DNA of 6,661 nt from a virus (lineage: Duplodnaviria > Heunggongvirae > Uroviricota > Caudoviricetes): positions 1-6,661 of the IMG/VR virus record IMGVR_UViG_2703718778_000002, one strand, 5' to 3'. The notes under the pieces were generated by a model. That model saw only the letters and a program-made list of their open reading frames with translations. It was not told the origin of the DNA and ran no database searches. Positions 3,589-6,535 of the stretch are shown piece after piece (positions within the stretch are counted from its first letter, which is position 1; each line of letters begins with the position of its first letter). Both the position numbers and the translations under genes were made by a program.

Positions 3589-5337
3589 TTATAAAAACGC
3601 GTCGCAATCGTCTGTTGTAATTGCGTTGGTCTGCGTTACTCCCTTAACTTTTCGCGTAATATATTCATGCCCGTAAACTTTCGCCGCTGGCTTCATGGCC
3701 TTGCTGAACTCAGCCACGTTTAGCGGTTTGCTCCTGCCTGCGTATGCCATAAACGCCAGATAGACGCGGTAAAGGCTGTTCCTGGTCGTGTACTTCACTG
3801 AATCACCACCGCCACCCATCATCAGGCCGCGCGCTTCCTCCAGAAAATTCAGGAACTGGCAAAACTCAATAACCGGATCCGTCTGTTGCTTTATTGCCAG
3901 TGCTTCATCACAGTCACGCTGTTCCAGTAGTAAAGCCCTCGCCTTTTCAGGGTCGGTAAAGTTCGCCAGCAAGCGGCGGATAATAACGGGGATTTCAGCC
4001 GCAATTTTTTCCGGTAGTTCCCTGTCTTTTTCGGCCTCACTAACAATATTGTCGAAACGGAAAATCACGCGACGACGTGCCACACCTCCGGCCCGTTCGG
4101 TGAATATCATCGGGTTATTATTGGTCGCCAGCACCACCGCCCTGATTACCGCCGTGAAACGCTTTTCATATTTCGGGTTTATTTCCACGGGGTCGCCGCC
4201 CGTGATTTTCTTGATGCCCGTTCCTTCGCCTGTATATTTCGGCTGGTCTGCCAGGACGATAAGACGACTCCCGACAACCTGCGCACGTCCACCAGCATCA
4301 TCAAGCGATGTCATTTCAGCGCTTACCGTGTTCTGTTTCCCTGCCAGAAGGCTGGCTATGTGCGTGAATGTACTTTTACCGCTCCCGCCGTCTCCGGTGG
4401 CCTCAATAAACATCTGCCAGTCGTACCGGTTCGCCATAATCATGTACAGCGCGGCACATATACGCATCATCTTGCGCGGGTCTTTTCCGGCTGCGTGCTC
4501 AAGCCATTTATGAAAGTTTGGCGCGTTATCGCGGATGTTCTCCCCAGGTGCTGGTGGCGTGTACTCAATGCCGTTGTGCGTGGTGATCCAGTTCTCCGGC
4601 GTGTGCGGGGAAAATTCCCCCGTTTTCAGGTCAAGCGCACCATTGGCGAACGGCAGCAAATCGCCGGACGGCTCCCCCATTGGTTCGGCAATAACTTTTA
4701 ACGCTTCAACGGCGTTATTGATCACGCGTTTGCTGAAAGTGGCCCTGTGCTCTGAATAGATCGCCACCATTTCGCGGCTCAGCTCCATTGTGCTGATCGG
4801 ACACCATACCCCGCCGCGCCATACGTGAACGATTTCACTTTCCGGATGTACACAAACGCCATCAAAGCGCTCGGCAAGCAGCTGCGCGCGCTCACTGTCT
4901 GCCATTTGTGCCAGTTGCGTATTTTTCTGCTCCGGCATGGTAAGCCCTGCGGCAATATTTTCACGCTCAGCATTCAGATAGCGCCGCCAGTTTTCACACT
5001 TCTGGACGTGCATTCCTTCGGGGTAAAAATTTGCGTCCTGAATATCTGCCGCCGCCAGCTTCTGACCAATCTTTTTGGTCTCCACCAAATCCAGTTCTCC
5101 GGCCTGGTACAGCCTTACGCGTTTTTTTCCATCCGGAACAATTTTCAGTGCATCAAGTTCGGCAAGCTGATTTGGCCCAAGCCACACAGGCGGCACATTA
5201 TCGCCGGATGCGGGGCCATCCTGCTCCTGCCATTGTTCCGCGTGTGACCAGGCATCACTACCCGCAAAGATAATTACCTCTGTGTCTTTGTGTTTTATTC
5301 CGCGTGGCTGTTTTTTTACGTTCGGTGCCAGTTTCAT
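3589..5337 (-). CDS. P4-family DNA primase / SF3-helicase replication protein, 582 aa
   Basis: Walker A motif GDGGSGKST, a Walker B-like hydrophobic stretch (RLIVLAD) and a downstream VLATNN motif typical of D5/P4-alpha-type NTPases. ATG at 5337 is preceded by AGGGG and overlaps the upstream stop (ATGA). Size and organisation fit pri-rep proteins of P4-like and PICI-like elements. Confidence 0.9.
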   Translation of the reverse strand: MKLAPNVKKQPRGIKHKDTEVIIFAGSDAWSHAEQWQEQDGPASGDNVPPVWLGPNQLAELDALKIVPDGKKRVRLYQAGELDLVETKKIGQKLAAADIQDANFYPEGMHVQKCENWRRYLNAERENIAAGLTMPEQKNTQLAQMADSERAQLLAERFDGVCVHPESEIVHVWRGGVWCPISTMELSREMVAIYSEHRATFSKRVINNAVEALKVIAEPMGEPSGDLLPFANGALDLKTGEFSPHTPENWITTHNGIEYTPPAPGENIRDNAPNFHKWLEHAAGKDPRKMMRICAALYMIMANRYDWQMFIEATGDGGSGKSTFTHIASLLAGKQNTVSAEMTSLDDAGGRAQVVGSRLIVLADQPKYTGEGTGIKKITGGDPVEINPKYEKRFTAVIRAVVLATNNNPMIFTERAGGVARRRVIFRFDNIVSEAEKDRELPEKIAAEIPVIIRRLLANFTDPEKARALLLEQRDCDEALAIKQQTDPVIEFCQFLNFLEEARGLMMGGGGDSVKYTTRNSLYRVYLAFMAYAGRSKPLNVAEFSKAMKPAAKVYGHEYITRKVKGVTQTNAITTDDCDAFL

Positions 5338-5633
5338 TTTTTACCCCTGAATACATTCAACATCTTTCTTATTTCCTGAATATTGGCGCGTGCTTTCTCC
5401 CTGCTGGTTGGTTTACTGCGGGGCGCTGCCTGTACCAGAGAAAAATCACGCCGGAACTGATAAACAGGCATCACGCAATCATATTCGTAACCTTCACGGC
5501 GGTAGGTTACGCGCCGTTCTTCCACGCCCTTAATCATTACCGTGCCGCCGTACTGGTCGCGGTAAATATCACCGCGCGTAAATTTAGGGTGAGTGTTGCC
5601 ACTGGCAGTTAAGCCAGAATATTTAAGTTTCAT
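5334..5633 (-). CDS. Hypothetical protein (99 aa), basic, immediately upstream of and coupled to the primase gene
   Basis: ATG start with GGAG about 10 nt upstream; stop overlaps the primase ATG. The product is Arg/Lys-rich; no motif recognised. Confidence 0.6.
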   Translation of the reverse strand: MKLKYSGLTASGNTHPKFTRGDIYRDQYGGTVMIKGVEERRVTYRREGYEYDCVMPVYQFRRDFSLVQAAPRSKPTSREKARANIQEIRKMLNVFRGKK

Positions 5634-5638
5634 TATTT

Positions 5639-5872
5639 TTATTCTCCGGTGTGCTGTTCTTTATATCTGTCGTGCAATAGATCTATTTCTTGCAGTTCCA
5701 TTATTACAGGCTCAAGAAGCGTTATTAATGCCGTGGCAATTATTGATTTTTGTTTGTCGCGTTCATTGTCGCCAAGTGTTTCAAGCCATATGCGCAATAT
5801 TTCCAGCATGTTTTCACTGTGAGAAAGTGCAAGAAATGCGCGGTCTATTGTTTGGTGGTAAATATCACGCAT
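5639..5872 (-). CDS. Hypothetical small protein (77 aa), predicted helical
   Basis: ATG at 5872 is preceded by GAGGATG and embedded in an ATGCGTGA overlap with the upstream stop; product begins MRD. Confidence 0.55.
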   Translation of the reverse strand: MRDIYHQTIDRAFLALSHSENMLEILRIWLETLGDNERDKQKSIIATALITLLEPVIMELQEIDLLHDRYKEQHTGE

Positions 5873-6098
5873 GGCTTACATCCTCAGGAAATTTTCTTCT
5901 ATAACGCGCCTCTGCCACATATTCCGCATAATCGGCGGCGATATTCAGTACATCAAGCCCCGTTGATTTATATTCTCTCGTGGAAAGTAAGAAAAAAGCC
6001 GCTCTAATAAGTTCTGGCATTGACGAAAGCGCATCAGCCGCATCATCAGGAACGCCGGAAAATTCCTGTTTCAGGGAATTAAAACGATCATCACGCAT
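5865..6098 (-). CDS. Hypothetical small protein (77 aa)
   Basis: ATG at 6098 was chosen because it reproduces the same ATGCGTGA stop/start overlap as the next gene and the product also begins MRD. Alternative in-frame starts exist at 6110 and 6146, the latter deep inside the upstream ORF. Confidence 0.5.
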   Translation of the reverse strand: MRDDRFNSLKQEFSGVPDDAADALSSMPELIRAAFFLLSTREYKSTGLDVLNIAADYAEYVAEARYRRKFPEDVSHA

Positions 6099-6312
6099 AA
6101 CCCACCCCATTTTCACAATCAGCAACAAGAATATTTTTAGCGTCATTCAGCGACCGCGTGGCGGTGTATCGGATACATTCCAGGGCGAACTGTGTCCGGT
6201 CTTTCTGTTCTTCTCCCTGCGCAAGCTCTGCCGTGCATTCAATATCAATAAGCGCGTGCATCAGCGTAGTGAGTGCGGCGGCGGCTGCGTCCGGTGTGGT
6301 TTTATTGCACAT
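6091..6312 (-). CDS. Hypothetical small protein (73 aa)
   Basis: ATG at 6312 is preceded by GGAGGGG with a 6-nt spacer; the ORF-track start at 6369 would overlap the upstream gene by 68 bp. Confidence 0.5.
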   Translation of the reverse strand: MCNKTTPDAAAAALTTLMHALIDIECTAELAQGEEQKDRTQFALECIRYTATRSLNDAKNILVADCENGVGYA

Positions 6313-6535
6313 GGTGTACCCCTCCGCATTTTTTTTCGTTAGAAATAAGCGTTCTTCTTTCCTGTTCATCGCTCAGGAATACGCAGACCTCACCGCTAAG
6401 GCGTTTAAGTAAGCCGATGATTGCCCCTGATTCGCTGTCGGTCATCATGCCAGGGTAATCCTCTGCCAGTGCGCAAATAACTTCGATTTGGTGGGCGCGT
6501 TCTGCTGCCTGTTGTAGTGTGATTTCCTGGCTCAT
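6302..6535 (-). CDS. Hypothetical small protein (77 aa), first gene of the small-ORF cluster
   Basis: ATG at 6535 is preceded by AGGGGG with an 8-nt spacer. The ORF-track start at 6592 is a TTG codon with no ribosome-binding site and would run through a direct-repeat region. Confidence 0.5.
   Translation of the reverse strand: MSQEITLQQAAERAHQIEVICALAEDYPGMMTDSESGAIIGLLKRLSGEVCVFLSDEQERRTLISNEKKCGGVHHVQ

Follow-up and report, generated by a model that had tools for sequence, protein, structure and literature searches.

The DNA analysed here (the window) is a stretch of 6,661 nucleotides (nt), positions 1 to 6,661 of the Caudoviricetes record IMGVR_UViG_2703718778_000002 in IMG/VR. Every long open reading frame (ORF) of the window lies on the minus strand, and five consecutive ones, of 77, 73, 77, 77 and 99 amino acids (aa), make up the block 5334-6535 between an Icd-like gene and a primase/replicase gene (Table 1). 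A sequence-only reading of this DNA had singled out five ORFs of 73-99 aa ahead of the primase, and both their coordinates and their sizes were confirmed. Our analysis shows that all five are real protein-coding genes, identifies ORF5 by its sequence as an orthologue of the regulator RgdR, and places the block in the early operon of a satellite of the Gram-negative phage-inducible chromosomal island (PICI) type.

The five ORFs had been described as chained by stop/start overlaps. Three such overlaps are present within the block, one of 11 nt between ORF1 and ORF2 (ATGTGCAATAA) and two of 8 nt at the ORF2/ORF3 and ORF3/ORF4 junctions (both ATGCGTGA), but ORF4 and ORF5 are separated by a 5-nt gap. 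At its two ends the block is joined to its neighbors by ATGA overlaps, formed by the Icd-like gene with ORF1 and by the TGA of ORF5 with the ATG of the primase gene. A purine-rich stretch precedes all five ORF starts, with predicted 16S rRNA 3'-end duplex energies of -10.7, -10.0, -7.6, -6.8 and -6.6 kcal/mol. For ORF2 the start was taken as the ATG that follows GGAGG; the mechanical ORF list has a longer 92-aa version, and it gives ORF3 as 93 aa. Scanning the block for promoters and terminators gave no excess over shuffled sequence, a repeat search of 5200-6661 found only short matches at chance level, and an Rfam scan of the window and two full elements for C4/IsrK-type immunity RNAs gave none at gathering score.

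Table 1. Features of the window (coordinates in the numbering of the window; pI, isoelectric point)
Feature	Coordinates	Strand	Description
Icd-like gene, 3' part	6532..6661	(-)	Runs off the window; its TGA and the ORF1 ATG overlap as ATGA
ORF1	6535..6302	(-)	77 aa, pI 5.0, predicted two-helix protein, phrog_1478
A8 tract	6329..6336	(-)	Near the 3' end of ORF1
ORF2	6312..6091	(-)	73 aa, pI 4.5, predicted helical hairpin; phrog_5146 and N-terminal half of phrog_2512
Interrupted poly-G tract GGGGTGGG	6101..6108	(-)	At the ORF2/ORF3 junction
ORF3	6098..5865	(-)	77 aa, pI 4.8, predicted helical; phrog_24341 and C-terminal half of phrog_2512
ORF4	5872..5639	(-)	77 aa, pI 4.9, predicted helical, phrog_2196
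ORF5 (rgdR orthologue, by sequence)	5633..5334	(-)	99 aa, pI 10.2, DUF4222, R20-G21-D22
Primase/replicase	3589..5337	(-)	582 aa; D5_N, DUF5906 and P4 primase_Cterm domains
Iteron stretch	3343-3581		At least 12 GGTAGAGRG-like iterons
ORF upstream of ssb	3025-3354	(-)	109 aa in the mechanical list; phrog_1231 matches residues 29-109
Non-coding gap	2173-2605		430 bp, AT-rich (~43% GC), from ssb to a 75-aa pre-capsid gene
Hairpin in the gap	2331-2367		GC-rich, then a T-run (AAAAGCGCCTCCG...CGGGGGCGCTTTTTTT)
Protease/capsid fusion gene	59-1948	(-)	629 aa, ClpP-like prohead protease fused to HK97-type major capsid protein

Evidence that the five ORFs are genes came from several directions. Of the 1202 nt, 99.6% fall within the five ORFs, each at least 70 aa long. 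Shuffling the sequence 2000 times with its dinucleotide composition preserved gave a mean coverage of 16% and a maximum of 77%, never 90%, which excludes a chance origin. Related loci were collected from IMG/VR (80 with ORF4 as query and 30 more with ORF1), and pooled Nei-Gojobori dN/dS values were computed on ungapped full-length copies. In the annotated frame dN/dS was 0.41 for ORF2, 0.29 for ORF3, 0.39 for ORF4 and 0.31 for ORF5, as opposed to 0.77-1.7 in the other two frames of the same strand, and the variable sites of these four ORFs were concentrated at third codon positions. The purifying selection for which the sequence-only reading had proposed to look among homologues is thus present. 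For ORF1 the corresponding values were 0.32 in frame and 0.85-0.93 out of frame, with 9 variable sites only; this ORF is too conserved for the test, and its stand-alone homologues are the better support. An exhaustive search of 1.84 billion representative proteins returned ~20 of them, 60-82 aa long and 33-52% identical, that share the pattern MSxEITLEQAxExAxQAE...ESYPH...DSE..AIASLL.RL.G....WL.EEQA. In addition, each of the five ORFs matches a PHROG family of unassigned function (E 1e-12 to 1e-49). The shuffle test, the in-frame dN/dS values, the PHROG matches and the diverged stand-alone homologues together establish all five as coding.

The statement that none of the five proteins has a recognizable motif proved wrong for ORF5, which matches the full length of the Pfam profile PF13973 (DUF4222; positions 1-53 of 53) and at 85.7 bits (E 1.5e-24) lies above the gathering score of 27. 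Its closest characterized relative is ECs1581 of O-island 51 in Escherichia coli O157:H7 Sakai, a 99-aa protein of pI ~10 named RgdR (Flockhart et al. 2012, PMC3378721). ORF5 and ECs1581 share 91.9% identity over residues 1-99, and the RgdR paper took more than 77% identity over 99 aa as its measure of orthology (PMC3378721). The RGD tripeptide that gave the protein its name lies at residues 20-22 of ORF5 (KFT-R20-G21-D22-IYRD). Judged by sequence, ORF5 is an RgdR orthologue. RgdR is an activator of the LEE1 promoter and of type III secretion and a repressor of motility. It also raises Congo-red binding, and in gel shifts it bound DNA without sequence specificity; the R20C variant lost both activation of type III secretion and DNA binding, while all variants still affected motility (PMC3378721). 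These phenotypes were reported for ECs1581 and C1493 only (PMC3378721). O-island 51 has since been recognized as a PICI, and rgdR was found in all E. coli PICIs analysed (Fillol-Salom et al.).

The tripeptide itself varies within the family, PGD, NGD and HGD being common (L004, L037, L082-L084 and the alignments), while G21, D22, I23 and D26 are invariant among the ORF5 homologues. A genome-contig scan with ORF5 gave only 2 loci. An AlphaFold2 model of ORF5 was built from a 72-row alignment, with a mean predicted local distance difference test (pLDDT) score of 78 and ~90 for residues 21-70. It predicts an SH3-like barrel of KOW/Tudor type at residues 21-70 (five strands and a short helix), a basic C-terminal helix at residues 77-97 after a stretch of lower pLDDT, and disorder in the first 14 residues. 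Foldseek found no significant match to this model in the PDB, the best being a KOW domain of Spt5 at E 0.024; against viral models it returned small uncharacterized phage proteins and DUF1653. The barrel resembles the KOW domains of Spt5/NusG, the C-terminal Tudor domain of UvrD/PcrA, the RNA-polymerase-interacting domain of CarD and phage DUF1653 at 8-18% identity, a likeness that concerns a predicted and very common fold (E of 0.024 or above for Foldseek against the PDB). The model settles the fold class only; that the barrel docks on RNA polymerase or some other machine bound to DNA, while the basic helix contacts the DNA itself, would be a lead. The check by homology and structure that the earlier reading had suggested for each protein yielded a named family and a fold class for ORF5, but no Pfam, PDB or defence-system match for ORF1-4.

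The genomic context of the block was then explored. By megablast, a 1.3-kb block was matched in about a quarter of the complete E. coli genomes (1439 of 5426), often in several copies, at up to six places per genome and nearly always on the chromosome. At homologous loci the RefSeq order is an Icd-like gene, three or four hypothetical genes, the DUF4222 gene and a replicase. The host islands are 10-15 kb long, are integrated at tRNA-Pro/yejM, rcnR, tqsA and other sites, and share a gene order: tyrosine integrase, AlpA-type helix-turn-helix protein, a variable stretch, icd, small ORFs, DUF4222, then replicase, ssb, often PerC, and head/capsid genes. This is the layout described for Gram-negative PICIs (PMC6092414, PMC10111431), in which AlpA is the master activator (PMC11773190) and transcription is unidirectional (PMC6092414). 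The Icd-like fragment in the window, 42 aa long, scores 50.1 bits against NCBIfam NF033153 (phage_ICD_like, cut-off 25) and is 97.5% identical to ECs1577, in agreement with the RefSeq annotation of homologous loci. The int and alpA genes lie beyond the window, and both are present in its closest annotated relatives (L115, L001, L002 and L121). The element most similar to the window overall matches 95% of the window at 93% identity. Within the rightward early operon of a Gram-negative PICI-type satellite, the block occupies the interval from the Icd-like gene to the replicase, and the early-operon framing of the sequence-only reading, with the operon directly ahead of the primase, was borne out.

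The window also carries what a PICI replicon of its own consists of, a pri/rep gene followed by an iteron origin. Residues 141-571 of the primase are 40% identical to P4 alpha (430 residues). Directly 3' of the primase stop, where PICI origins have been reported (PMC6092414), lies a 240-bp stretch with at least 12 GGTAGAGRG-like iterons (GGTAGAGRG/CYCTCTACC) of 9-11 nt in both orientations. The first ~140 residues of the replicase (phrog_2850) retain 40-60% identity across loci with differing initiators (L005-L084), whether the remainder of the protein is a P4-type primase or a RepA/AAA_25 helicase.

Strong physical clustering was observed between the DUF4222 gene and the replication initiator gene. 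At every locus examined the former abuts the start of the latter, and this holds for four unrelated initiator types: a P4-alpha-like primase (the window, Nissle 1917 and Sakai), a RepA/AAA_25 helicase (some sister loci), a protein with a "primase-like DNA-binding domain" and, in the lambdoid Escherichia phage vB_EcoS-733R5, an initiator of the lambda O type. The overlap is 4 nt (ATGA) in the three loci read, namely that of the window primase and those of two RepA/AAA_25 genes, and 11 nt in vB_EcoS-733R5, where the DUF4222 ORF runs over the start of the O gene (3149). In that phage the DUF4222 ORF (59 aa, 2980..3159 on the plus strand of L120, between the cII-like and O genes) is unannotated, and the deposited annotation calls a 95-aa ORF on the opposite strand instead. 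An unannotated DUF4222 ORF is found at the same place in Klebsiella phage ST101-KPC2phi6.3 (L119).

Five is not a fixed gene count for this operon, as many sister elements encode ORF1-3 in two genes or in one. In about a third of the sister loci, ORF2 and ORF3 make up a single ORF of 144-155 aa (junction ...ADCENGG-VMRDDRF...), ORF1-ORF2 fusions are 146 aa long, and fusions of all three measure 217-221 aa. For the 221-aa form, independent assemblies of NCBI and Logan (read-archive) origin account for at least 60 index blocks, in which it always lies between icd and the ORF4 homologue; it is therefore no sequencing artefact. Fused and split states differ only at two homopolymers. In the G-tract, 'GAAAAT(G)nTTATGCGTGATGAT', n = 7 or 10 gives the fused form and n = 8, 9 or 11 the split one; in the A-tract, 'AACG(A)nTGCGG', n = 7 is fused and n = 8 split, and the triple fusions combine A7 with a fused G-tract junction. 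G7 or G10 was found in 19 of ~60 loci, the split state of G8 length being the most frequent. Loci with identical 430-nt flanks differ in the length of the G-tract, which argues that it changes quickly. Length thus varies between otherwise identical copies (G7-G11, A7 and A8), as expected of homopolymer contingency. However, ORF3 keeps its own ATG behind the G-run in every frame, so that the change is between fused and split, not between on and off, and in split forms the G-run can serve as a Shine-Dalgarno-like sequence for ORF3. The tract of the window, GGGGTGGG, doubles as the Shine-Dalgarno-like sequence of ORF3; it is interrupted, which fixes it in the split state and should make it stable. 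When proteins are found fused in relatives, this is classically taken to mean that they act together, and these sequence comparisons suggest that ORF1-3 are probably one functional unit.

The array also appears modular. Alternative cassettes occupy the icd-ORF2 or the ORF2-ORF3 space in sister loci, and a cassette protein swaps slots and fuses to ORF3, which points to exchangeable modules. This protein begins 'MINLSLTDLNRIQF...' (66-70 aa) or 'MHNLSISDLNSIQF...' (127 aa) in loci L005, L012, L015 and others, and P0373, a database protein of 167 aa, joins it to ORF3. ORF1 is itself an accessory slot, present in ~30% of the sister loci, and is 94-100% conserved across the E. coli elements that carry it.

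ORF1-4 contrast with ORF5 in charge (pI 4.5-5.0 as against 10.2). No Pfam, NCBIfam, PADLOC or PDB match was obtained for any of the four: none of the five ORFs matched a PADLOC-DB family at E up to 0.1, PDB profile searches with ORF1, ORF4 and ORF2-3 gave only chance matches (E of at least 0.3), and a Pfam scan of 24 diverged ORF1 relatives found none. An AlphaFold2 model of the natural ORF1-2-3 fusion, from a shallow 123-row alignment, had a mean pLDDT of 44.5; it was not used for fold searches, and the all-helical character it predicts for ORF1-3 is to be read as secondary structure only. The four ORFs are not tandem paralogues, as hhalign between the family alignments gave less than 1% for every pair. 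Likenesses of ORF4 to Mu Gp27 (15.7 bits, cut-off 28), LcrG and a small-terminase PHROG (E ~0.02) fell below threshold and were set aside as helical-hairpin noise. The papers searched contained no experiment on ORF1-4, the systematic gene screen of EcCICFT073 being confined to genes that follow the ori. Among the relatives sampled, those with a name belong to Escherichia, Salmonella and Xenorhabdus and are all labelled hypothetical, several others being metagenome or read-archive sequences; the families are restricted to Enterobacterales. ORF4 had no match among 50,697 phage records, and a viral-contig scan with a Salmonella ORF3-like protein gave none.

Comparison with known systems places the window closest to the early region of PICIs of the Sakai Sp7/EcCICFT073 type (PMC6092414), where Icd-like gene, small ORFs, rgdR, primase, iterons and ssb follow in the same order. 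In the prophage-like element Sp7 (O-island 51), ECs1581 has the same DUF4222 domain, RGD at 20-22 and pI ~10 as ORF5, and it likewise lies directly upstream of, and overlaps, the primase gene of its P4-related island, today counted among the PICIs. ORF1 and ECs1579 of Sp7 share 53% identity, and ECs1580, in the same slot beside rgdR, is a probable distant homologue of ORF4 by sequence (hhalign probability 66%; motif WLxxLxxNERD in both). On the other hand, Sp7 has neither ORF2 nor ORF3 but a different 61-aa gene, ECs1578; its late region holds a full head/packaging set, whereas the window has the protease/capsid fusion gene only. The left operon of P4 (vis/orf88 - cI/eta/kil - epsilon - orf151 - cnr (orf106) - alpha) shares the unidirectional early arrangement with several small genes before an alpha-type primase, a ~100-aa gene directly before the primase, and a ~150-aa gene upstream (orf151, compared with the fused ORF2-3 of sister elements). 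Homology of the five ORFs to epsilon, orf151 or cnr was rejected (hhalign 0.07-0.2%; only chance matches by tblastn against P4), and the resemblance to the P4 early operon is positional only. Proteins of the ORF1 family are also encoded in Salmonella phage Fels-1 (STM0898.6n) and Klebsiella prophages, with 40-43% identity over ~58 residues. There they belong to strings of small overlapping genes in early-left operons, just downstream of the gene for a CI-type repressor, and in Fels-1 transcription of the string leads away from the immunity region, towards xis/int. These are phages, however, not satellites, and ORF2, ORF3 and ORF4 were not found there.

The explanation we favor as probable for the whole is that the block comprises early genes of a PICI, an RgdR orthologue and an ORF1-3 unit among them, that are co-expressed with the primase. 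The string of small ORFs would be transcribed with the primase once AlpA switches the satellite on after induction of the helper phage, and translated by coupling, so that the small proteins would be made in step with the replicase and in fixed proportions; the layout and the published role of AlpA point in this direction. ORF1-3 would form one acidic helical unit, with ORF4 as a further acidic helical partner, and ORF1-4 might bind other proteins, more likely than DNA. The barrel and basic helix of RgdR could act on the replicase/origin, on RNA polymerase or on nucleoid proteins, and the reported effects on LEE and motility would then be side effects of a function in the satellite life cycle.

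Several points weigh against this explanation. Co-transcription and translational coupling are deduced from the layout, and the window holds no promoter, alpA or int. No relative of known function was detectable for ORF1-4, and the notion of a protein-binding adaptor derives from charge and predicted helices. Part of the differences in G-tract length could be homopolymer assembly errors. Moreover, rep and ori of EcCICFT073 alone replicate a plasmid (PMC6092414) and, since these suffice, RgdR cannot be an essential replication factor; a modulating role in replication is possible.

Such a modulating role is taken further by an alternative in which RgdR, perhaps with ORF4, is a replication accessory factor, a functional analogue of Cnr that would bind the initiator, the iteron origin or both and tune copy number or the timing of satellite replication, its effects on host transcription being incidental. 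The adjacency of DUF4222 to the initiator start whichever the initiator type, the position of rgdR, which is that of cnr (ORF106) in P4, the basic and non-specifically DNA-binding nature of RgdR and the iteron origin just after the primase gene are all consistent with it. However, RgdR has no sequence similarity to Cnr/DUF5375, rep and ori are enough for plasmid replication without it, and the adjacency may instead reflect a conserved recombination block: the N-terminal domain of the replicase is conserved across initiator kinds, and rgdR and that domain travel as one block. We regard this alternative as possible but on the unlikely side.

It is also doubtful that ORF1-4 are counter-measures against helper or host (epsilon-like anti-repressors, anti-restriction proteins or DNA mimics, anti-defence or interference factors), made early to prepare the cell, and not partners in the replication/regulation module. 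Many phage-encoded inhibitors are small, acidic and helical, as ORF1-4 all are or are predicted to be. Their place, between immunity region and primase, is that of epsilon and orf151 in P4, the ORF1 family also lies beside the CI repressor gene in the early-left operons of lambdoid prophages, and the slots are mosaic in composition with alternative cassettes. Against this, ORF1-4 show no similarity to epsilon, orf151 or cnr of P4 (hhalign 0.2% at most) and no PADLOC, Pfam or PDB match; ORF4 and its relative ECs1580 hold a fixed slot by rgdR, not a variable hotspot, and the near-invariance of ORF1 among E. coli elements is unlike that of an arms-race gene. The sequence-only reading had thought of regulators, host-takeover factors or anti-defence proteins: the first holds for ORF5 as RgdR, a function of host-takeover type is found just upstream of the block in the Icd-like cell-division inhibitor, and no positive evidence for any of the three was obtained for ORF1-4.

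A bolder combination, which we consider improbable, would have the ORF1-3 architecture (three, two or one polypeptides) switched at high frequency by slippage at the A- and G-tracts, as a contingency locus, and RgdR, as an initiator-coupled factor with a KOW/Tudor-like fold, countering H-NS-type silencing or engaging RNA polymerase on the induced satellite. Raised LEE1 activity, raised Congo-red binding and lost motility match in direction the changes that follow a loss of H-NS function. A link to H-NS is not raised in the RgdR paper (PMC3378721). If true, H-NS antagonism on the induced satellite would explain the LEE1, Congo-red and motility effects of RgdR in one step, and a contingency locus in a phage satellite would change protein architecture rather than switch a gene off. 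Least likely is that ORF2/ORF3, and in part ORF1/ORF2, are one frameshift-broken gene, a decaying pseudogene that would leave fewer than five functional genes: fused forms are indeed common, among them many database proteins of 144-155 aa, phrog_2512 is the fused form and PGAP labels one G9 copy "frameshifted", but the split G8-length state is the commonest, the ATG of ORF3 is kept as an internal Met in fused forms and behind a possible ribosome-binding site in split ones, both halves have the low in-frame dN/dS given above, interrupted, non-slippery tracts in the split frame exist (that of the window included), and the RefSeq annotation of Nissle 1917, among other strains, treats the halves as two proteins.

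RgdR is already known and named, and ORF1-4 belong to known, uncharacterized families that are very common in E. coli; in other respects the block is largely what the early region of such a known satellite family ordinarily looks like. What our analysis adds is modest, the linkage of DUF4222 to the initiator and the fused/split architecture, of which the latter is the most informative new point. Its interest lies in a block so widespread that includes RgdR, a regulator affecting type III secretion and colonisation in enterohaemorrhagic E. coli, and the DUF4222-initiator link, the KOW/Tudor-like fold with its basic helix and the modularity of ORF1-3 offer handles on the role of these genes in the satellite.

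Some observations concern the remainder of the window. A capsid-forming PICI (cfPICI) has a complete head/packaging set of capsid, protease, portal, connectors, HNH, and small and large terminase. Only the protease/capsid fusion is present in the window and in L115, the annotated element nearest to it, which is integrated at tRNA-Pro/yejM; beyond this sole head gene, L115 has just two small hypothetical genes before the chromosome resumes. The full set is present in other elements that bear the block (L001 and L122). For the ORF upstream of ssb, the RefSeq relatives are annotated at ~92 aa, and the true start is probably internal, as the longest start would overlap the iteron region. The AT-rich gap between ssb and the pre-capsid gene, with its hairpin and T-run, could be the site of a terminator, of a late promoter or of cos.

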